This document shows, one piece after another, positions 3,538-44,572 of a stretch of DNA of 64,000 nt (its first letter is position 1; each line of letters begins with the position of its first letter). This stretch comes from Escherichia coli (lineage in GTDB: Bacteria; Pseudomonadota; Gammaproteobacteria; Enterobacterales; Enterobacteriaceae). The notes under the pieces were generated by a model. The model was not told the origin of the DNA. It saw nothing but the letters and a program-made list of their open reading frames with translations, and did not search any database. A program made the translations under genes and the position numbers. The stretch lies in NCBI RefSeq assembly GCF_030013595.1, contig NZ_CP122768.1; one strand, written 5' to 3'.

Positions 3538-6500
3538 TTACTGCGCCTGCACGCGCAACTCTGCTGCGCTACGACTACGGTGACCCAGCAGTGCTTTTAC
3601 ATCACTGGACTTCGGTTTAACCAGCGCAAATTTAGTGGCGAAGGTTGACCAGTTCGCCAGAATCTCTTCACCACGCTGAGAACCGGTATGCTGCACATGC
3701 TCGGTGATAAGTCCACGCAGATGCTCTTCATGGATCGCCAAATCGTCAACGCTTAAGACCTCGACCAGTTCCGGGTTAACGCGTTTGCGGAAATCGCCGC
3801 TTTCATCGAGAACGTAAGCGAAGCCGCCAGTCATGCCCGCGCCGAAGTTAACGCCGGTTTTACCCAGAATACAGACAATACCGCCCGTCATATATTCACA
3901 GCCGTTGTCGCCAATGCCTTCTACCACGGTGATAGCACCGGAGTTACGCACGCCGAAACGTTCACCCGCGCGGCCTGCGGCATACAGACGACCACCGGTC
4001 GCGCCATACAGGCAGGTGTTGCCGATAATACTTGCTTCATGGCTGCGGAAGGCTGAGCCAACCGGAGGGCGAATGGCGATTAAGCCGCCCGCCATGCCTT
4101 TACCGACATAGTCGTTGGCATCACCGGTCAGGTACAGTTCCACGCCGCCCGCGTTCCACACACCGAAGCTCTGGCCTGCGGTGCCGTTGAAGTACGCTTT
4201 GATCGGATCGGCTGCCAGACCCTGATCGCCGTGCGTCTGGGCGATATAGCCTGAAAGCGACGCGCCGACAGAACGGTCGGTGTTGCGAATATCGAACCAG
4301 AAGGTTTTGCTCTGACGCTCATCGACAAACGGTTTTGCCTGTTGCAGCAACTGTGCGTTCAGCAGGCCGTTATCAAACGGCGGGTTGTTTTCGGTACAGT
4401 AGAGCGCCTTACCTGGATGCGGCTCAGCGGTCTCCAGCAGTTTCGACAGCGCCAGTTTCTGCTGTTTGGCGGTGAAACCGTCCAGCTCTTTCAGCAGGTC
4501 GGTGCGACCAATCAGATCCACCAGACGCGTTACCCCCAGCTGTGCCATCAGCTCGCGGGTTTCACGGGCGATAAACTCAAAGTAATTAGTCACCTTGAAC
4601 GGCAGGCCGTGATAGTGATTCTTACGCAGTTTGTCATCCTGAGTTGCTACACCCGTCGCGCAGTTGTTCAGGTGGCAAATACGCAGATATTTACAGCCGA
4701 GCGCCACCATCGGACCGGTGCCGAAGCCGAAGCTTTCTGCGCCGAGAATCGCCGCTTTGATGATATCGACACCCGTTTTCAGGCCGCCATCGACCTGCAA
4801 ACGAATTTTATGACGCAAGCCGTTGGCAACCAGCGCCTGCTGGGTTTCCACCAGACCGAGTTCCCACGGACAGCCTGCGTATTTCACCGATGAAAGCGGG
4901 CTTGCGCCGGTGCCGCCGTCATAGCCTGCGATGGTGATTAAATCGGCATAAGCTTTCGCCACACCGGTCGCGATGGTGCCTACTCCCGGTTCGGACACCA
5001 GCTTCACGGAGATCATCGCTTTCGGGTTAACCTGCTTGAGGTCGAAAATCAGCTGCGCTAAGTCCTCGATAGAGTAGATATCGTGGTGCGGCGGCGGGGA
5101 GATCAGCGTCACGCCTGGCACGGAATAACGCAGTTTGGCGATGTACGGCGTGACTTTATCACCTGGCAACTGACCGCCTTCGCCCGGTTTCGCGCCCTGG
5201 GCGACTTTAATCTGAATGACGTCGGCATTGACCAGATACGCCGGAGTAACCCCAAAGCGACCGGAAGCCACCTGCTTGATGCGCGACACTTTGTTGGTGC
5301 CGTAGCGTGCCGGATCTTCGCCGCCTTCACCGGAGTTAGAGTTGCCGCCGATGCTGTTCATCGCTTCAGCCAGCGCCTCGTGGGCTTCCGGGCTTAACGC
5401 GCCGATAGACATCGCAGCGGTATCGAAGCGTTTAAACAGTTCGCTTGCCGGTTCAACATCAGCAATGTTGACCGCGTTTTCACCCGGCGTAATTGCCAGC
5501 AGATCGCGCAGCGTGGTTGCCGGACGCTCATTAACCAGCTTCGCGTATTCCTGATAGTCGCTGTACTCGCCGCTCTGTACCGCCTGCTGCAGTGTGCGCA
5601 CCACGTCCGGGTTGTAGGCGTGGTATTCGCCGCCGTGCACATATTTCAGCAGGCCGCCCTGGCTGATGGGCTTACGCGCCAGCCAGGCACGTTTCGACAG
5701 ATTCAGCAGATCCTGCTGGAAGTCTTCAAAGCTCGCCCCGCCAATGCGGCTAACAGCGCCCTGGAAGCACAGGCCTACGACATCATCGTGCAGACCGACC
5801 GCTTCAAACAGTTTCGAGCAGCGGTAAGAGGCGATGGTGGAGATGCCCATTTTGGACATGATTTTGTACAAGCCTTTGTTGATGCCGTTACGGTAGTTGA
5901 GCATCACGGTACGATAATCTTTGGCAATCGCGTGGGTGTCTACCAGGCGGCCCAGCGTTTCATAGGCAAGGTACGGATAAATAGCCGTCGCACCGAAGCC
6001 CAGCAACACGGCGAAATGGTGCGGATCGCGGGCGCTGGCGGTTTCGACGATGATGTTGGCATCGCAACGCAAGCTTTGATCGACCAGACGGGTCTGGATC
6101 GCGCCAACCGCCATCGGAGCCGGAACCGGCAGGCGATCTTTAGCGATATTCCGGTCGGAGAGCACCAGCAGCACGGTGCCGCTACGTACCATTTTTTCGG
6201 CTTTGTCGCACAGCTCTTTGACCGTCGCTTCGAGCGTGGTTTTGGTGACGTCAAAGGTTATATCCAGTGTATCTGCGCGGTAGTGCTCCTCTTTCATCGT
6301 CGTGAGCTGTTTGAAATCGGAGTAGAGCAGAATCGGCGATTTAAAACTTAAACGGTGCGCCTGGCCCTCTGCTTCACAGAAGACGTTCATTTCACGCCCG
6401 ATGCTGGTGGCGAGCGACATAACATGCGCTTCACGCAGTGGGTCGATTGGCGGGTTAGTCACCTGGGCAAATTGCTGGCGGAAGTAGTCGTAAATAATGC

Positions 6501-34914: not shown

Positions 34915-35544
34915 ATGACAGGTAAGAAGCGTTCTGCCAGCTCCAGCCGCTGGCTTCAGGAACACTTTAGCGATAAATATGTTCAACAGGCACAGAAAAA
35001 GGGGTTACGTTCCCGTGCCTGGTTTAAACTTGATGAAATACAGCAAAGTGACAAACTCTTTAAACCGGGAATGACGGTTGTCGACCTTGGTGCTGCTCCG
35101 GGTGGTTGGTCACAATATGTGGTCACCCAAATTGGCGGCAAAGGCCGCATCATCGCTTGCGATCTTTTACCTATGGATCCTATCGTTGGTGTGGACTTTC
35201 TTCAGGGCGATTTTCGTGATGAACTGGTGATGAAAGCACTGCTGGAGCGCGTTGGCGACAGCAAAGTCCAGGTTGTCATGTCCGATATGGCACCAAACAT
35301 GAGTGGAACACCGGCGGTGGATATCCCCCGTGCCATGTATCTGGTGGAACTGGCGCTAGAAATGTGTCGTGATGTATTAGCGCCAGGTGGCAGTTTTGTA
35401 GTGAAGGTGTTCCAGGGCGAAGGTTTCGATGAGTATCTAAGGGAAATTCGCTCCCTGTTTACGAAGGTCAAAGTTCGTAAGCCGGACTCTTCTCGTGCAC
35501 GTTCGCGGGAAGTGTATATTGTAGCGACCGGGCGTAAACCCTAA
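34915..35544 (+). CDS. rlmE: 23S rRNA U2552 2'-O-methyltransferase
   Basis: 209-aa ORF with SAM-binding motif [11 protein letters not shown]. Confidence 0.97.
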
Positions 35545-35643
35545 CCGGGAGATTTCAGACGAAAGTTTGAAAGATGCTGGATATAGAGTATCCTGACGCT
35601 GTTTTTAACACAGTTGTAATAAGAGGTTAATCCCTTGAGTGAC

Positions 35644-37578
35644 ATGGCGAAAAACCTAATACTCTGGCTGGTCATTGCCGTTGTGCTGATGTCAGTATTC
35701 CAGAGCTTTGGGCCCAGCGAGTCTAATGGCCGTAAGGTGGATTACTCTACCTTCCTACAAGAGGTCAATAACGACCAGGTTCGTGAAGCGCGTATCAACG
35801 GACGTGAAATCAACGTTACCAAGAAAGATAGTAACCGTTATACCACTTACATTCCGGTTCAGGATCCGAAATTACTGGATAACCTGTTGACCAAGAACGT
35901 CAAGGTTGTCGGTGAACCGCCTGAAGAACCAAGCCTGCTGGCTTCTATCTTCATCTCCTGGTTCCCGATGCTGTTGCTGATTGGTGTCTGGATCTTCTTC
36001 ATGCGTCAAATGCAGGGCGGCGGTGGCAAAGGTGCCATGTCGTTTGGTAAGAGCAAAGCGCGCATGCTGACGGAAGATCAGATCAAAACGACCTTTGCTG
36101 ACGTTGCGGGCTGCGACGAAGCAAAAGAAGAAGTTGCTGAACTGGTTGAGTATCTGCGCGAGCCGAGCCGCTTCCAGAAACTCGGCGGTAAGATCCCGAA
36201 AGGCGTCCTGATGGTCGGTCCTCCGGGTACCGGTAAAACGCTGCTGGCGAAAGCGATTGCAGGCGAAGCAAAAGTTCCGTTCTTTACTATCTCCGGTTCT
36301 GACTTCGTCGAAATGTTCGTCGGTGTGGGTGCATCCCGTGTTCGTGATATGTTCGAACAGGCGAAGAAAGCGGCACCGTGTATCATCTTTATCGATGAAA
36401 TCGACGCCGTAGGCCGCCAGCGTGGCGCAGGCCTGGGCGGTGGTCACGATGAACGTGAACAGACTCTGAACCAGATGCTGGTTGAGATGGATGGCTTCGA
36501 AGGTAACGAAGGTATCATCGTTATCGCCGCGACTAACCGTCCGGACGTTCTTGACCCGGCGCTGCTGCGTCCTGGCCGTTTCGACCGTCAGGTTGTGGTT
36601 GGCTTGCCAGATGTTCGCGGTCGTGAGCAGATCCTGAAAGTTCACATGCGTCGCGTACCATTGGCACCCGATATCGACGCGGCAATCATTGCCCGTGGTA
36701 CTCCTGGTTTCTCCGGTGCTGACCTGGCGAACCTGGTGAACGAAGCGGCACTGTTCGCTGCTCGTGGCAACAAACGCGTTGTGTCGATGGTTGAGTTCGA
36801 GAAAGCGAAAGACAAAATCATGATGGGTGCGGAACGTCGCTCCATGGTGATGACGGAAGCGCAGAAAGAATCGACGGCTTACCACGAAGCGGGTCACGCG
36901 ATTATCGGTCGCCTGGTGCCGGAACACGATCCGGTGCACAAAGTGACGATTATCCCACGCGGTCGTGCGCTGGGTGTAACTTTCTTCTTGCCTGAGGGCG
37001 ACGCAATCAGCGCCAGCCGTCAGAAACTGGAAAGCCAGATTTCTACGCTGTACGGTGGTCGTCTGGCAGAAGAGATCATCTACGGGCCGGAACATGTTTC
37101 TACCGGTGCGTCCAACGATATTAAAGTTGCGACCAACCTGGCACGTAACATGGTGACTCAGTGGGGCTTCTCTGAGAAATTGGGTCCACTGCTGTACGCG
37201 GAAGAAGAAGGTGAAGTGTTCCTCGGCCGTAGCGTAGCGAAAGCGAAACATATGTCTGATGAAACTGCACGTATCATCGACCAGGAAGTGAAAGCACTGA
37301 TTGAGCGTAACTATAATCGTGCGCGTCAGCTTCTGACCGACAATATGGATATTCTGCATGCGATGAAAGATGCTCTCATGAAATATGAGACTATCGACGC
37401 ACCGCAGATTGATGACCTGATGGCACGTCGCGATGTACGTCCGCCAGCGGGCTGGGAAGAACCAGGCGCTTCTAACAATTCTGGCGACAATGGTAGTCCA
37501 AAGGCTCCACGTCCGGTTGATGAACCGCGTACGCCGAACCCGGGTAACACCATGTCAGAGCAGTTAGGCGACAAGTAA
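35644..37578 (+). CDS. ftsH: ATP-dependent zinc metalloprotease FtsH
   Basis: AAA+ Walker A GPPGTGKT and zinc motif HEAGHA; ATG at 35644 gives the 644-aa form (MAKNLILWL); the track starts at an upstream in-frame TTG (35635). Confidence 0.95.
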
Positions 37579-37667
37579 GTTACCGCATCAGATGACTGTA
37601 TTTGTACCGAAAACCCCGGGGCGTGCTCCGGGGTTTTTTCTTATCAATTCATACCAGGGATAACACC

Positions 37668-38516
37668 ATGAAACTCTTTGCCCAGGGCACTTCACTGGAC
37701 CTTAGCCATCCTCACGTAATGGGGATCCTCAACGTCACGCCTGATTCCTTTTCGGATGGTGGCACGCATAACTCGCTGATAGATGCGGTGAAACATGCGA
37801 ATCTGATGATCAACGCTGGCGCGACGATCATTGACGTTGGTGGCGAGTCCACGCGCCCAGGAGCGGCGGAAGTTAGCGTTGAAGAAGAGTTGCAACGTGT
37901 TATTCCTGTGATTGAGGCAATTGCTCAACGCTTCGAAGTCTGGATCTCGGTCGATACATCCAAACCAGAAGTCATCCGTGAGTCAGCGAAAGTTGGCGCT
38001 CACATTATTAACGATATCCGCTCCCTTTCCGAACCAGGGGCTCTGGAGGCAGCTGCAGAAACCGGTTTACCGGTTTGTCTGATGCATATGCAGGGAAATC
38101 CAAAGACCATGCAGGAAGCCCCGAAGTATGACGATGTCTTTGCGGAAGTGAATCGCTATTTTATTGAGCAAATAGCACGTTGCGAGCAGGCGGGTATCGC
38201 AAAAGAGAAATTGTTGCTCGACCCCGGATTCGGTTTCGGTAAAAATCTCTCCCATAACTATTCATTACTGGCGCGCCTGGCTGAATTTCACCATTTCAAC
38301 CTGCCGCTGTTGGTGGGTATGTCACGAAAATCGATGATTGGGCAGCTGCTGAACGTGGGGCCGTCCGAGCGTCTGAGCGGTAGTCTGGCTTGTGCGGTCA
38401 TTGCCGCTATGCAAGGCGCGCATATCATTCGTGTTCATGACGTCAAAGAAACCGTAGAAGCGATGCGGGTGGTGGAAGCCACTCTGTCTGCAAAGGAAAA
38501 CAAACGCTATGAGTAA
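37668..38516 (+). CDS. folP: Dihydropteroate synthase
   Basis: Track ORF 304 aa; canonical 282-aa protein starts [32 protein letters not shown]. Confidence 0.93.
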
Positions 38517-39846
38517 TCGTAAATATTTCGGTACCGATGGGATTCGTGGTCGTGTAGGGGATGCGCCGATCACCCCTGATTTTGTGCTTAAGCTGGGTTG
38601 GGCCGCGGGTAAAGTGCTGGCGCGCCACGGCTCCCGTAAGATCATCATTGGTAAAGACACGCGTATTTCTGGCTATATGCTGGAGTCAGCACTGGAAGCT
38701 GGTCTAGCGGCTGCGGGCCTTTCCGCACTCTTCACTGGTCCGATGCCAACACCGGCCGTGGCTTATCTGACGCGTACCTTCCGCGCAGAGGCCGGCATTG
38801 TGATTTCTGCATCGCATAACCCGTTCTATGATAACGGCATTAAATTCTTCTCTATCGACGGCACCAAACTGCCGGATGCAGTTGAAGAAGCCATCGAAGC
38901 GGAAATGGAAAAAGAGATCAGCTGCGTTGATTCGGCAGAACTGGGTAAAGCCAGCCGTATCGTTGATGCTGCGGGTCGCTATATCGAGTTTTGCAAAGCC
39001 ACGTTCCCAAACGAACTTAGCCTTAGTGAACTGAAGATTGTGGTGGATTGTGCAAACGGTGCGACTTATCACATCGCGCCGAACGTGCTGCGTGAACTGG
39101 GAGCGAACGTTATCGCTATCGGTTGTGAGCCGAACGGTGTAAACATCAATGCCGAAGTGGGGGCTACCGACGTTCGCGCTCTCCAGGCTCGTGTGCTGGC
39201 TGAAAAAGCGGATCTCGGTATTGCCTTCGACGGCGACGGCGATCGCGTGATTATGGTTGACCATGAAGGCAATAAAGTCGATGGCGATCAGATCATGTAT
39301 ATCATCGCGCGTGAAGGTCTTCGTCAGGGCCAGCTGCGTGGTGGCGCTGTGGGAACATTGATGAGCAACATGGGGCTTGAGCTGGCGCTGAAACAGTTAG
39401 GAATTCCATTTGCGCGCGCGAAAGTGGGTGACCGCTACGTACTGGAAAAAATGCAGGAGAAAGGCTGGCGTATCGGTGCAGAGAATTCCGGTCATGTGAT
39501 CCTGCTGGATAAAACCACTACCGGTGACGGCATCGTTGCTGGCTTGCAGGTGCTGGCGGCGATGGCACGTAACCATATGAGCCTGCACGACCTTTGCAGC
39601 GGCATGAAAATGTTCCCGCAGATTCTGGTTAACGTGCGTTACACCGCAGGTAGCGGCGATCCGCTTGAGCATGAGTCAGTTAAAGCCGTGACCGCAGAGG
39701 TTGAAGCTGCGCTGGGCAACCGTGGACGCGTTTTGCTGCGTAAATCTGGCACCGAGCCGTTAATTCGCGTGATGGTAGAAGGTGAAGACGAAGCGCAGGT
39801 AACTGAATTTGCACACCGTATCGCCGATGCAGTAAAAGCCGTTTAA
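38509..39846 (+). CDS. glmM: Phosphoglucosamine mutase
   Basis: 445-aa ORF with active-site Ser motif SASHNP; 8-nt overlap with folP. Confidence 0.97.
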
Positions 39847-39865
39847 AGCGTTAGATAACTGGCTA

Positions 39866-39892
39866 AAAAGGCGGCGATTGTCGCCTTTTTTC
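39866..39892 (+). terminator. Intrinsic terminator after glmM
   Basis: AAAAAGGCGGCGATTGTCGCCTTTTTT hairpin plus T-run. Confidence 0.7.
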
Positions 39893-40073
39893 TCGGCGAA
39901 CACATCGGTTTTGCTGTTTTTTTCCGCAGTTGATACAATGCGATAAAATTGCCCTTGCGAAGGTCATTCGCTTTGGTTAGTATTCACACCCGCTTCAGTG
40001 GGAAAGATTAAAAACTCCCGCTTTATTGGTTGAAGCATTGGTACGCGGCAACTCCGCAAGGAACAGGTTGATT

Positions 40074-40406
40074 ATGTACGAAGCTCTTTTAGTAGTTTTC
40101 CTTATTGTGGCAATTGGCCTTGTTGGTCTGATCATGCTGCAGCAAGGTAAAGGCGCTGATATGGGAGCCTCCTTCGGAGCAGGCGCTTCCGCTACGCTGT
40201 TTGGTTCAAGTGGTTCTGGTAACTTCATGACCCGCATGACGGCGCTGCTGGCAACGTTATTCTTCATCATCAGTCTGGTGCTGGGTAACATCAATAGCAA
40301 TAAAACCAATAAAGGTAGCGAATGGGAAAACCTGAGTGCGCCGGCGAAAACCGAACAAACTCAGCCAGCTGCTCCGGCTAAGCCGACCAGCGATATCCCG
40401 AACTAA
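40074..40406 (+). CDS. secG: Protein translocase subunit SecG
   Basis: Track ORF 126 aa; canonical 110-aa protein starts MYEALLVVFLIVAIGLVGLIMLQQGKG. Confidence 0.93.
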   Translation: MYEALLVVFLIVAIGLVGLIMLQQGKGADMGASFGAGASATLFGSSGSGNFMTRMTALLATLFFIISLVLGNINSNKTNKGSEWENLSAPAKTEQTQPAAPAKPTSDIPN

Positions 40407-40420
40407 AAAGTAGTATCCGT

Positions 40421-40507
40421 GCCGAGGTGGTGGAATTGGTAGACACGCTACCTTGAGGTGGTAGTGCCCAATAGGGCTTACGGGTTCAAGTCCCGTCCTC
40501 GGTACCA
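40421..40507 (+). tRNA. leuU: tRNA-Leu (anticodon GAG)
   Basis: 87-nt sequence GCCGAGGTGGTGGAATTGGTAGACACGCTACCTTGAGGTGGTAG…GTCCTCGGTACCA with class-II long variable arm and encoded CCA. Confidence 0.95.
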
Positions 40508-40513
40508 AATTCC

Positions 40514-40546
40514 AGAAAAGAGACGCTGAAAAGCGTCTTTTTTCGT
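40514..40546 (+). terminator. Intrinsic terminator after leuU
   Basis: AGACGCT-GAAA-AGCGTCT stem-loop followed by TTTTTT. Confidence 0.8.
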
Positions 40547-40965
40547 TTTGGTCCTGGTCTGAGGAATGGTTGTCAGGTATCTGTATCTCGTCCAGTTGCT
40601 TTACTCGTAGCTGGTACTTTGAAACGATGGTGCCGGTACGCCTTAGTTATAAACTTTTCCCTTCTGCTGACATAATTGGCACTTTATTGTGTCAACTCCA
40701 GTTCCGGTACGAATACGGATATGTTTACTTCTCGATAAACCATCCTGCTCCTGTCAGTATAACTACTGATGGCTACGTTCTGCGTAATGTTTAGAGACGC
40801 ATTGATAATGTTATTTAATTACTGAGAACGCAATGGCCGCATCATTTAAAAAGAAAAAACTAACAGTGTTTCGTTCTGATATGGATCAGAGTTGAAAAAC
40901 ATGTCTGATATAAAATTGAACATTGTTGATAATTGTTTATATTGGTTGTGAACTTGGATTTCTGG

Positions 40966-42591
40966 ATGACAGTATTCAACAAATTTGTTAGAAGTTTTAA
41001 ATCTCATTGGTTGTTGTATCTTTGTGTTATTGTTTTTGGTATTACGAACTTAGTCGCCTCTTCCGGAGCGCATATGGTTCAGCGATTGCTGTTCTTCGTT
41101 CTGACCATCCTGGTTGTTAAACGTATATCATCCCTTCCGCTTCGCCTGCTTGTTGCCGCACCATTTGTGTTACTGACAGCGGCAGACATGAGTATTAGCC
41201 TCTATTCATGGTGTACCTTTGGTACAACTTTCAATGATGGATTTGCGATTAGCGTGCTGCAGAGTGATCCGGATGAAGTTGTCAAAATGCTGGGGATGTA
41301 TATCCCTTATCTATGTGCTTTTGCCTTTTTATCCCTTCTTTTTTTGGCAGTAATAATAAAATATGATGTTTCCTTGCCGACGAAAAAAGTGACAGGAATA
41401 TTATTGCTGATTGTCATTTCGGGCAGTTTATTTTCCGCTTGTCAATTTGCTTATAAAGATGCAAAAAATAAAAAAGCGTTCAGTCCATATATACTAGCGT
41501 CGCGATTTGCTACCTATACGCCGTTTTTCAATCTCAATTATTTTGCTTTAGCAGCGAAAGAGCATCAAAGATTACTCTCAATTGCAAACACGGTGCCATA
41601 TTTTCAATTATCAGTCAGGGATACAGGTATTGATACCTACGTGTTGATTGTGGGGGAGTCTGTACGTGTCGACAATATGTCTTTGTATGGATACACACGC
41701 TCTACGACACCGCAAGTCGAAGCACAAAGAAAACAGATCAAACTGTTTAATCAAGCAATAAGCGGTGCACCTTACACTGCGCTGTCGGTTCCCCTTTCTT
41801 TAACTGCTGATTCTGTTTTGAGTCATGACATTCATAATTACCCGGACAACATTATTAATATGGCTAATCAAGCAGGATTTCAGACTTTCTGGCTAAGCTC
41901 GCAATCCGCTTTTCGGCAGAATGGTACAGCAGTTACCAGTATCGCCATGCGCGCCATGGAAACAGTCTATGTCAGAGGATTTGATGAATTGTTGTTGCCG
42001 CATTTATCGCAAGCGTTACAGCAAAAGACGCAGCAAAAGAAACTGATTGTTCTTCATTTAAATGGAAGCCATGAACCGGCTTGTAGCGCCTATCCGCAAT
42101 CCAGCGCCGTGTTTCAACCGCAGGACGATCAGGATGCCTGCTATGACAACTCCATTCATTACACAGATAGTTTGCTAGGTCAGATTTTTGAATTATTAAA
42201 AGATCGCCGCGCCTCGGTCATGTATTTTGCCGACCACGGCCTGGAACGCGACCCTACGAAGAAGAACGTCTATTTTCATGGAGGCAGGGAGGCCAGCCAG
42301 CAGGCATATCATGTCCCGATGTTTATCTGGTATAGCCCCGTTCTTGGGGATGGCGTTGATCGTACAACGGAAAACGATATCTTTTCCACTGCGTACAATA
42401 ATTACCTTATTAATGCGTGGATGGGGGTAACAAAGCCGGAACAGCCGAAAACGCTGGAGGAAGTGATTGCACACTATAAAGGAGACTCACGGGTTGTGGA
42501 TGCAAACCATGATGTTTTCGATTATGTGATGCTCAGAAAGGAGTTTACAGAGGATAAGCAAGGTAACCCCACCCCTGAAGGGCAGGGTTGA
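40966..42591 (+). CDS. yhbX: Putative phosphoethanolamine transferase (EptA/sulfatase-like inner-membrane protein) YhbX
   Basis: Track ORF 552 aa; canonical 541-aa protein starts MTVFNKFVRSFKSHW; N-terminal TM helices plus sulfatase-type domain; gene and upstream 400 bp look markedly AT-rich by eye. Confidence 0.88.
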   Translation: MTVFNKFVRSFKSHWLLYLCVIVFGITNLVASSGAHMVQRLLFFVLTILVVKRISSLPLRLLVAAPFVLLTAADMSISLYSWCTFGTTFNDGFAISVLQSDPDEVVKMLGMYIPYLCAFAFLSLLFLAVIIKYDVSLPTKKVTGILLLIVISGSLFSACQFAYKDAKNKKAFSPYILASRFATYTPFFNLNYFALAAKEHQRLLSIANTVPYFQLSVRDTGIDTYVLIVGESVRVDNMSLYGYTRSTTPQVEAQRKQIKLFNQAISGAPYTALSVPLSLTADSVLSHDIHNYPDNIINMANQAGFQTFWLSSQSAFRQNGTAVTSIAMRAMETVYVRGFDELLLPHLSQALQQKTQQKKLIVLHLNGSHEPACSAYPQSSAVFQPQDDQDACYDNSIHYTDSLLGQIFELLKDRRASVMYFADHGLERDPTKKNVYFHGGREASQQAYHVPMFIWYSPVLGDGVDRTTENDIFSTAYNNYLINAWMGVTKPEQPKTLEEVIAHYKGDSRVVDANHDVFDYVMLRKEFTEDKQGNPTPEGQG

Positions 42592-42598
42592 TGTCGAA

Positions 42599-43957
<1,359 letters not shown>

Positions 43958-43993
43958 TTAATTAACTGATGATGAGCCTGGATTTCCGCTCTC

Positions 43994-44031
43994 ACTGAAT
44001 TTTTATGCAAAATAAATGAGTTTTCATTTAA
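43994..44031. promoter_or_regulatory. Tandem ARG-box-like operators in the argG promoter region
   Basis: ACTGAATTTTTATGCAAA and AAATGAGTTTTCATTTAA resemble the ArgR box (TGAAT-N4-ATTCA), 50-90 bp upstream of the argG ATG. Confidence 0.45.
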
Positions 44032-44167
44032 TCATCTTTTATCGGAGACAGGAAGAGTTTAGTGTGTTTTTTGTAAAATAATGCGCTTAAGGGAGAGCAG
44101 GAGAAGGCAAAAGTATTCAACAAATGAAAGTGAACCGGATATTCATTCACGTGATTAGCAATAAACG

Positions 44168-44198
44168 TTGACAAAATGTGGCATGGATCACTATAATG
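44168..44198 (+). promoter_or_regulatory. Candidate upstream metY promoter (-35 TTGACA, -10 TATAAT; spacer about 19 bp)
   Basis: Consensus hexamers read directly; spacer is longer than optimal. Confidence 0.35.
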
Positions 44199-44245
44199 CC
44201 TGCAGATTTTACGTCCCGTCTCGGTACACCAAATCCCAGCAGTAT

Positions 44246-44274
44246 TTGCATTTTTTACCCAAAACGAGTAGAAT
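44246..44274 (+). promoter_or_regulatory. metY proximal promoter (-35 TTGCAT, 17-bp spacer, -10 TAGAAT)
   Basis: Hexamers with a 17-bp spacer; -10 ends about 15 bp before the tRNA 5' end. Confidence 0.6.
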
Positions 44275-44289
44275 TTGCCACGTTTCAGG

Positions 44290-44366
<77 letters not shown>

Positions 44367-44487
44367 CTTTCCCTTAGAGTCCTTTTTCAAATATACTGTG
44401 AAGACTTCGGCCTTCGTAGTGGGATTTGAAAAAATCCTTCTGGAAAGTGCTCCAGACCGCAGTTGCGGTTATAGGGTTCAGTTATAT

Positions 44488-44513
44488 AAAGCCCCGATTT
44501 ATCGGGGTTTTTT
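44488..44513 (+). terminator. Intrinsic terminator/attenuator between metY and rimP
   Basis: AAAGCCCCGATTTATCGGGGTTTTTT; a second weaker hairpin plus T-run follows at 44535-44557. Confidence 0.7.
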
Positions 44514-44572
44514 GTTATCTGACTACAGAATAACTGGGCTTTAGGCCCTTTTTTTATGTCTTGGGGGTGGGC

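Follow-up and report, generated by a model that had tools for sequence, protein, structure and literature searches.

The yhbX locus and its base composition

The window analysed here, a 64-kb stretch that sequence and annotation identify as E. coli chromosome, includes an interval between leuU and argG in which yhbX is the sole annotated gene. Reading from the left, secG (40074–40406) is followed by leuU (40421–40507, plus strand), which encodes tRNA-Leu(GAG) and is recovered by ARAGORN, by the Rfam tRNA model (52.8 bits) and in the annotation, and then by the secG–leuU intrinsic terminator, a plus-strand hairpin with a T run (40515–40544) delineated by a terminator scan and an alignment of spacers. 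Beyond this, on the same strand, lies a variable segment, the yhbX cassette (40550–42606), comprising an AT-rich non-coding leader (40550–40965, 38% GC) and the yhbX coding sequence (40966–42591, 541 amino acids). The right neighbour, argG (42599–43942), is on the minus strand, and RNA folding places a GC-rich hairpin, not assigned to either strand, at the yhbX/argG junction (42565–42589).

A sequence-only reading of this DNA had set down yhbX as a gene abutting leuU, which it is, and as AT-rich together with its upstream region, which windowed GC analysis bears out. At 43.2% GC, against 52.1% (sd 2.6) in the other 59 genes of the window, yhbX has the lowest value of the 60 (z −3.44); its GC3 of 43.0%, against 55.5% (sd 5.1; z −2.47), is likewise the window minimum, level with rpmA to three decimals, while at the first codon position GC is low (GC1, z −2.4) and at the second normal (GC2, z −0.5). 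The GC minimum of the 64 kb falls at 40578–42203 (40.2%) for stretches of 1626 bp and at 40503–42547 for stretches of 2045 bp, nearly the interval 40547–42591 that had been picked out from the letters. The leuU–yhbX spacer has 38.4% GC, and other intergenic regions of the window reach 37.5–38%. Within yhbX, the thirds run from 39% through 42% to 48% GC in the 5′ to 3′ direction, the part coding for the membrane domain being the most AT-rich at 39%, and in dinucleotide signature the cassette is ordinary (δ* 54, the mean over tiles also being 54). Since both GC2 and this signature are normal, the low GC of the 5′ third could stem in part from a hydrophobic membrane domain.

The leader contains weak sigma-70-like hexamers at 40905–40943 and is well kept among E. 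coli (π 0.013); it matches no Rfam family, the two open reading frames tested in it match no Pfam family, and it has no true-plasmid homologue. A peak from in-vitro sigma-holoenzyme SELEX has been located in the yhbX–leuU spacer (PMC5493296).

Insertion polymorphism and the junctions of the cassette

The yhbX cassette is carried by 5178 of 5426 E. coli genomes (95.4%) and is missing from the other 248. In 237 of the genomes (4.4%), the same slot is occupied by an unrelated cassette with a helix-turn-helix (HTH) gene, whose product is matched only by N-terminal HTH models of Pfam, NCBIfam, PADLOC and PHROGs and by nothing among phage records, and in strain E7-1N7 leuU and argG are separated by a 273-bp spacer with no gene at all. 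Gene-free spacers of comparable length are seen in Salmonella diarizonae (201 bp) and two Citrobacter genomes (181 and 213 bp), and this lack of yhbX from the slot in the two related genera and in E7-1N7 agrees with the earlier view of the gene as horizontally acquired. This comparison covers Salmonella, Citrobacter and E. coli, and an exact-match scan for leuU in genome contigs is a thin sample of 22 loci, E. coli itself not among them. Other cargo fills the slot in Intestinirhabdus, Citrobacter amalonaticus and Rosenbergiella, and in Rosenbergiella gaditana a P4-type integrase gene directly follows leuU, about 190 bp downstream. Short divergent YhbX-like fragments (P0129, P0151, P0157 and others) proved to be frameshifted or error-laden assemblies and are unusable for dating in other Escherichia; L031, for instance, is 82.7% identical across 9.3 kb with zero gaps, and its divergence is therefore not natural.

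Both edges of the cassette can be placed closely. On the left, where leuU is the conserved neighbour of the slot, the hairpin at 40515–40544 is the final stretch common to all E. coli alleles, Salmonella and Citrobacter, and the BLAST breakpoints against the HTH allele put the junction at 40549/40550, almost exactly where the sequence-only reading began its interval (40547). A tRNA-associated insertion had been proposed, of which the adjacency stands; the edge itself is not inside the tRNA gene but 42 bp past it, beyond the terminator. On the right, an alignment of argG 3′ ends sets the junction within the final two codons of argG (42602–42607), with differences at 42604–42606: all yhbX alleles end ArgG in ..GQ*, as against ..VK* or ..AK* elsewhere. 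Salmonella, Citrobacter, E7-1N7 and the HTH allele have a homologous argG terminator (in the Salmonella and Citrobacter spacers, AAAAAAGGCCGC..GCGGCC) together with the C-terminal -K, and this ancestral pair is missing from the yhbX allele alone. The hairpin at 42565–42589 occupies the site of the lost argG terminator and has a T run on neither strand, and the terminator scan found no canonical terminator at the yhbX/argG junction. A published list of convergent transcripts that overlap includes the pair argG–yhbX (PMC12288877).

YhbX as a maintained member of the phosphoethanolamine transferase superfamily

By sequence profiles and its predicted structure, YhbX is assigned to the phosphoethanolamine transferase superfamily (EptA/EptB/EptC/MCR), with the alkaline-phosphatase fold. 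Residues 224–466 match the Pfam Sulfatase family (PF00884, 4e-56), and searches against PDB sequences return EptC (5e-24), NmEptA (4e-23) and also MCR-1. The AlphaFold model (pLDDT 91.9) retrieves with Foldseek NmEptA (5FGN), EcEptC (6A82; TM 0.75–0.78 on target) and MCR-1 (9NWW) as top matches, and full-length superposition on NmEptA and MCR-1 gives a TM of about 0.62. The best sequence and fold matches of YhbX are E. coli EptC (CptA/YijP), Neisseria EptA (LptA) and MCR-1, enzymes that transfer phosphoethanolamine to heptose of the LPS core or to lipid A. YhbX has in common with them both an architecture—a five-helix N-terminal membrane domain and a periplasmic domain of the alkaline-phosphatase/sulfatase fold—and a catalytic set of Glu, Thr nucleophile, His, Asp-His and His, whereas its identity to them is only 20–24% in structural alignments.

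The membrane domain is encoded by 40966–41580 (residues 1 to ~205), as delimited from hydropathy, model helices and GC by thirds, and has five predicted hydrophobic segments (residues 16–34, 41–59, 61–79, 113–131 and 144–162) that are long helices in the model; the Pfam N-terminal EptA/B domain finds no match in YhbX at E ≤ 0.01. The catalytic domain, delimited by alignment to NmEptA, is encoded by 41587–42525. Its residues E231, T271, H369, D423, H424 and H438 align with E240, T280, H383, D452, H453 and H465 of NmEptA; across 30 members of the subfamily none of these positions varies apart from H438, which is at least 90% conserved. From published EptA and MCR-1 structures, T271 is presumably the nucleophile and the others a Zn-binding Glu, the Asp-His pair and accessory His residues. 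By this analogy, Thr271 would take phosphoethanolamine from phosphatidylethanolamine at a Zn2+ site formed by E231, D423 and H424, and YhbX would pass it on to an acceptor in the periplasmic envelope. The gene had earlier been called a lipid A/LPS-modifying enzyme; the superfamily placement is upheld by Pfam, PDB and Foldseek, and the lipid A target is not, for YhbX falls far below the NCBIfam cut-offs of the relevant families: 123 against 561 and 94 against 660 for EptA, 103 against 493 for EptB and 142 against 404 for CptA, as well as 156 against 500 for P_eth_NH2_trans.

As to selection, yhbX shows a dN/dS of ~0.10, compared with 0.008–0.025 in neighbouring genes, and a within-species dS of 0.066, in the range of the core neighbours. 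With the fold, the five predicted helices and all catalytic residues intact at this dN/dS, yhbX is a maintained gene under purifying selection and not a decaying remnant. The description of the locus as a fixed remnant thus needs amending in both its words, the slot being divided among yhbX (95.4%), the other cassette (4.4%) and one gene-free strain.

The function of YhbX is not established in the literature, and yhbX stands outside the set conserved in Enterobacteriaceae, which in Salmonella and C. rodentium comprises EptA, EptB, CptA and YbiP (PMC4013655). A raised PpspA-lacZ activity reported for a yhbX knockout is probably an artefact, because yhbX, like greA and nanT, lies near rpoN, and the authors themselves discounted hits with a reconstituted native rpoN locus (PMC4551910).

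The question of silencing

The absence of phenotype or function reports, taken with the composition of the locus, might be read as the mark of a transcriptionally silent xenogene, coated by H-NS and without present function in E. coli, a reading to which we give some weight while thinking it unlikely. About 1 kb is at 36–40% GC with TpA steps enriched 1.7-fold, the promoter-like hexamers are weak, and convergent transcription from argG would enter yhbX because the argG terminator has been lost. The dN/dS, the intact catalytic residues and the 95% retention, however, argue for at least a conditional function. The density of the H-NS high-affinity motif, which we take to be TCGATAAATT, is unremarkable (rank 32 of 125 tiles), although this proxy does not discriminate; and the H-NS study tables that were covered make no mention of yhbX, b3173 or leuU, a point that carries little weight. 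Silencing by H-NS, which the sequence-only reading thought probable, may be regarded as one conceivable mode of regulation.

Homologues, the island paralogue and the integrase question

Outside the E. coli cluster itself, identity to YhbX does not exceed 48% in any representative of a 50%-identity cluster, and only 121 clusters are reached at E ≤ 1e-30 among 1.84 billion representatives; another homologue search gave near-identical E. coli variants only. The nearest homologues belong to Buttiauxella, Pectobacterium, Mixta, Microvirgula, Providencia and Proteus, all at loci other than leuU–argG, and those of Buttiauxella and Pectobacterium are richer in AT than the DNA around them. Of eight homologue neighbourhoods inspected, only two have a link to LPS: the Pectobacterium gene lies inside the waa cluster, immediately after a WaaP-family kinase gene, and that of Providencia 2.5 kb from hldD-waaF-waaC. 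These neighbourhoods hint at the LPS core as the best guess for the acceptor of YhbX. Matches at 28–30% identity filed under phages come for the most part from Salmonella whole-genome contigs and from short fragments that lack annotation, and no YhbX-clade gene in an annotated phage genome was found among the phage-set matches.

E. coli itself has a YjgX/YhbX-like paralogue with 64% amino-acid identity to YhbX over 521 residues. A pheV island and a circular element of island-like character both carry it; only 455 genomes (8%) have it at full length, and some 1,450 others keep a short remnant of it. The paralogue resembles yhbX in being AT-rich against its surroundings (43.7% GC) with the same 5′-to-3′ GC gradient. 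Unlike the single-gene yhbX cassette, it sits in mosaic surroundings: the pheV island also contains IS fragments, restriction-modification genes and, next to the tRNA, an integrase gene, and the circular element carries toxin-antitoxin genes, IS elements and an integrase gene of its own. The flanks of the paralogue have no homology to the cassette. Genes of the YjgX/YhbX type have been found in every pheU, pheV and selC island analysed (PMC6174562).

This regular occurrence as island cargo makes it natural to ask if yhbX is the last cargo gene of a classical integrase island that had its att site at the leuU 3′ end and whose integrase and att repeats have eroded. As in the selC, pheV, pheU and leuX islands, the cassette is tRNA-adjacent, of atypical base composition and variable between strains and species, with island-type cargo; the integrase downstream of leuU in Rosenbergiella gaditana and the differing cargo in Intestinirhabdus, C. 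amalonaticus and Rosenbergiella would also suit such an origin. The cassette differs from these islands, however, in having one gene only, no integrase and no att direct repeats. In the annotation, the window has no integrase gene or fragment, the 23-nt leuU 3′ end occurs just once in the 64 kb at up to 3 mismatches, and no relevant repeats were found, which confirms what the sequence-only reading had said of both. The edges, too, are at odds with site-specific integration, the left lying after the tRNA terminator and the right cutting into argG; furthermore, homology to the island paralogue is limited to the coding sequence, and that paralogue is oriented oppositely relative to its tRNA. A former integrase island hence appears rather improbable.

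Origin of the cassette

The proposal that yhbX occupied the slot before Escherichia, Salmonella and Citrobacter diverged and was later deleted from the other genera, with its AT-richness being that of a weakly expressed membrane protein, could appeal to the normal GC2, the ordinary dinucleotide signature, the 48% GC of the 3′ third and a dS like that of core neighbours, but it is largely refuted by the junctions, since the exact restoration by independent deletions of a terminator and a -K common to Salmonella, Citrobacter, E7-1N7 and the HTH allele is implausible, and with yhbX having the lowest GC3 of 60 genes, homologues at most 48% identical scattered over genera at different loci, and an island paralogue and Buttiauxella and Pectobacterium homologues that are likewise AT-rich, it must be deemed very improbable.

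We favour instead, with a probability of about 0.8, the interpretation that 40550–42606 is a cassette of one gene which the Escherichia lineage gained by horizontal transfer, and which codes for an intact, predicted inner-membrane enzyme of the EptA/EptC/MCR superfamily whose activity is inferred from that kinship. The old horizontal acquisition posited from the sequence gains support from the slots without yhbX in Salmonella, Citrobacter and one E. coli, from the argG terminator that these share and from the sporadic and distant homologues. Under this interpretation, the ancestral leuU–argG spacer would have been ~180–270 bp long and have contained both the leuU terminator and one for argG. 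The cassette would have taken the place of all sequence from the leuU terminator to the penultimate codons of argG, in the process removing the argG terminator and leaving ArgG to end in -GQ in place of -(A/V)K. Such an insertion would be later than the split from Salmonella and Citrobacter and earlier than the radiation of present-day E. coli, after which the cassette would have risen to a frequency of ~95%. No integrase or att repeat survives, and the cassette may have entered either with a tRNA-linked island that later decayed or through illegitimate or flank-homologous recombination.

Biological implications

yhbX is already annotated, and its history is an ordinary textbook case of old horizontal transfer that calls for no new kind of element. 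Nevertheless, it is an orphan gene in the best-studied bacterium, where it belongs to a group of five phosphoethanolamine-transferase paralogues, and no acceptor assignment for it was found in the literature. The analysis provides for it a clean, dated history as an insertion whose junctions are exact, at one of which argG had its end rewritten and lost its terminator. Its maintenance by selection, along with the occurrence of its relatives on genomic islands or in and beside LPS-core clusters, narrows the search for a substrate. As a tentative and somewhat doubtful extension, YhbX and the YjgX-like island paralogue might form a mobile phosphoethanolamine transferase clade whose acceptor differs from the known acceptors lipid A phosphate, Kdo II, heptose I phosphate and periplasmic glucans and may be another position of the LPS core or another surface glycan or protein. 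If this were true, E. coli would possess a surface modification, expressed under certain conditions and disseminated by islands, with effects on its sensitivity to phages, colicins or cationic peptides.

Base composition and surroundings of yhbX

Over the stretches compared, this part of the E. coli chromosome is identical to that of strain HCP5S3_I2. In the local gene order glmM precedes secG (40074-40406), which is followed by leuU, encoding tRNA-Leu(GAG) (40421-40507), an intrinsic terminator downstream of it (40515-40544) and, across a leuU-yhbX spacer of 458 bp, yhbX itself (40966-42591, plus strand, 541 aa). The convergent argG (42599-43942, minus strand) comes next, with 7 bp between the two stop codons. 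The argG-yhbX pair figures among convergent pairs with overlapping transcripts in an RNA-seq survey (PMC12288877), and by in vitro SELEX a minor-sigma RNA polymerase holoenzyme binds weakly in the yhbX-leuU spacer (PMC5493296). Beyond argG, a tRNA-Met (44290-44366) precedes the rimP leader RNA element (Rfam RF01770, 102 bits; 44455-44555) upstream of rimP. Further on, an IS200-family element (about 56700-57400; hairpin at 56749-56817) lies between deaD (ending at 56608) and mtr (starting at 57473); it encodes a 169-aa Y1 transposase (56773-57282; Pfam Y1_Tnp, 1e-36), and adds 711 bp that the otherwise identical HCP5S3_I2 genome lacks.

The AT-richness of yhbX, which a sequence-only reading had judged by eye, is borne out: of the window's 60 complete genes it has both the lowest GC (43.2% versus 52.1 ± 2.6%, z -3.4) and the lowest GC3 (43.0% versus 55.5 ± 5.1%, z -2.5), with an ordinary GC2. 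Across the entire 64 kb, GC also reaches its minimum here, for stretches of 1.6 kb as well as of 2.0 kb. Within the gene, GC rises from 39% in the third encoding the membrane domain to 48% in the last third; the GC of the leuU-yhbX spacer, 38.4%, is low yet inside the range of the other intergenic regions of the window. The dinucleotide signature is not unusual, as would fit a gene acquired long ago or taken from a related donor. H-NS favours a composition of the kind seen at yhbX, and the density of an H-NS motif does not set the locus apart; that the gene is H-NS-silenced, as the same reading proposed, is conjecture.

Three alleles in the leuU-argG spacer

The yhbX cassette (40550-42606 in the window) occurs at 95-100% identity in 5,178 of 5,426 complete E. 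coli genomes, K-12, B, CFT073, UTI89 and O157:H7 being among the carriers. In 237 others, which include many bovine or STEC strains, its place is taken by a 1.17-kb cassette of 37% GC (3651-4773 of locus L001, from E. coli OkiPb01700), which codes on the opposite strand for a 317-aa protein with an XRE-type helix-turn-helix at its N-terminus and an uncharacterised C-terminal region. A single complete genome, that of E7-1N7, an ordinary E. coli with an argG 97.5% identical to that of the window, was found with a gene-free spacer of 273 bp (1707-1979 of locus L040). Thus, the earlier description of yhbX as fixed has to give way to a presence in about 95% of E. coli genomes, alongside two alternative alleles.

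All three alleles diverge on the left at the same point, 40549/40550, directly past the leuU terminator. On the right, the helix-turn-helix cassette stops short of an intact ancestral argG terminator, which E7-1N7 likewise keeps, and in both ArgG ends in -VK, the outgroups having -AK; every yhbX allele lacks this terminator and has an ArgG ending in -GQ, with just a GC-rich hairpin devoid of a T run left at the yhbX/argG junction. As these features are confined to the yhbX alleles, the yhbX allele is the derived one, and the insertion of 40550-42606 deleted the argG terminator and replaced the last two argG codons.

An exact scan for leuU with one genome per species yielded 22 loci, which were then compared by tblastn. 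In Salmonella diarizonae and two Citrobacter genomes argG follows leuU after 181-213 bp without yhbX, and these spacers have in common the leuU terminator and the argG terminator (AAAAAAGGCCGC..GCGGCC). In Enterobacterales that are more distant, namely Edwardsiella, Hafnia, Phaseolibacter and Tenebrionibacter, as well as in a MAG (L006, L008, L014, L015, L016, L024, L026) rimP-nusA comes directly after leuU (about 330 bp) without argG; thus, argG occupies this position only in the sampled Escherichia, Salmonella and Citrobacter genomes. Elsewhere leuU is followed by a chaperone-usher fimbrial operon and a C39-peptidase ABC exporter (Intestinirhabdus alba, L022 1904-10792), a transporter and an enolase-family gene (one Citrobacter amalonaticus), the arnBCADT lipid A aminoarabinose operon (Rosenbergiella nectarea, L021 7153-13233), or a P4-type integrase about 190 bp past leuU and then a DUF2357/PD-(D/E)XK nuclease gene (Rosenbergiella gaditana, L005 5253-6518). 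The content of the slot after leuU accordingly varies across the order. A Logan contig (SRR3359616, L031) considered as a divergent species was set aside: collinear with 35000-44319 of the window and 82.7% identical to it with zero gaps over 9.3 kb, it has the look of an artefact of sequencing or chemical conversion.

This variability, with the Rosenbergiella gaditana integrase as part of it, leaves room for the cassette being an eroded island at leuU; such an origin is nevertheless improbable, as the window holds neither an integrase nor a second copy of the leuU 3' end even with three mismatches allowed, just as had been noticed by eye, and the edges of the cassette, which lie beyond the leuU terminator on the left and within argG on the right, are unlike those of site-specific integration. 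The exact junctions and the spacers without yhbX in Salmonella, Citrobacter and E7-1N7 give good support to an old horizontal acquisition of yhbX beside a tRNA gene, without an active island.

The YhbX protein

YhbX has a sulfatase-fold domain (Pfam), preceded by five predicted hydrophobic helices, and the closest solved structures are E. coli EptC, Neisseria EptA, Campylobacter EptC and MCR-1. A confident AlphaFold model built from 30 homologues (pLDDT 91.9, pTM 0.90) has its best superpositions with EptA and MCR-1 over their full lengths and with the periplasmic domain of EptC. E231, T271, H369, D423, H424 and H438 of YhbX match the catalytic residues of EptA and are conserved subfamily-wide. 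With NCBIfam scores that all fall well short of the respective cut-offs, YhbX is not the equivalent of EptA, EptB or CptA. Across six diverse strains dN/dS is 0.10, as against 0.008-0.025 for glmM, secG and argG, a purifying selection that is clear yet several-fold weaker than on these neighbors. Hence, of the "remnant" originally proposed, the lack of an active island stands, whereas the gene is intact and, judging by its substitutions, is maintained rather than decaying.

In the literature consulted no function is established either for YhbX or for PMI3040, a relative from Proteus. The closest homologue outside Escherichia (48% identity), from Pectobacterium sp. B1J-3, lies within a waa LPS-core cluster directly 3' of a WaaP/Kdo-family kinase gene (L030 5114-7599; 32% GC versus 42% for the locus), and the Providencia homologue adjoins hldD-waaF-waaC. 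These two neighborhoods hint at a link to the LPS core, the remaining six contexts being uninformative or islands; the proposed lipid A/LPS-modifying role is conjecture.

Mobile relatives

The E. coli YhbX cluster is isolated: among 1.84 billion cluster representatives just 121 clusters match at E<=1e-30, the next being 42-48% identical and coming from Buttiauxella, Pectobacterium, Mixta, Microvirgula (a betaproteobacterium), Providencia and Proteus. Each of these hits sits at a different locus, none beside leuU, and the search points to no donor of yhbX itself. A paralogue with 64% protein identity is carried by the 62-kb circular CP057032.1 (L037/L038), filed as an E. coli plasmid, which looks like an excised island with its tyrosine integrase, AlpA regulators, CP4-57-type genes, F4-like fimbriae, astA, toxin-antitoxin genes and an H-NS paralogue. 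A full-length copy of this paralogue is present in 455 E. coli chromosomes, as in the pheV island of strain ECE204 (L039 14001-15674), and about 1,450 more keep a 100-bp 3' remnant of it, which in E. coli B adjoins the selC integrase; YjgX/YhbX-type genes were present in all pheU, pheV and selC islands analysed (PMC6174562). AT-richness relative to the surrounding DNA, as seen for yhbX, recurs in the paralogue and in the homologues from Buttiauxella and Pectobacterium. yhbX is a known gene and its insertion an ordinary kind of event; in light of the island-borne paralogue, its remnants and the AT-rich homologues, the YhbX clade is mobile cargo.
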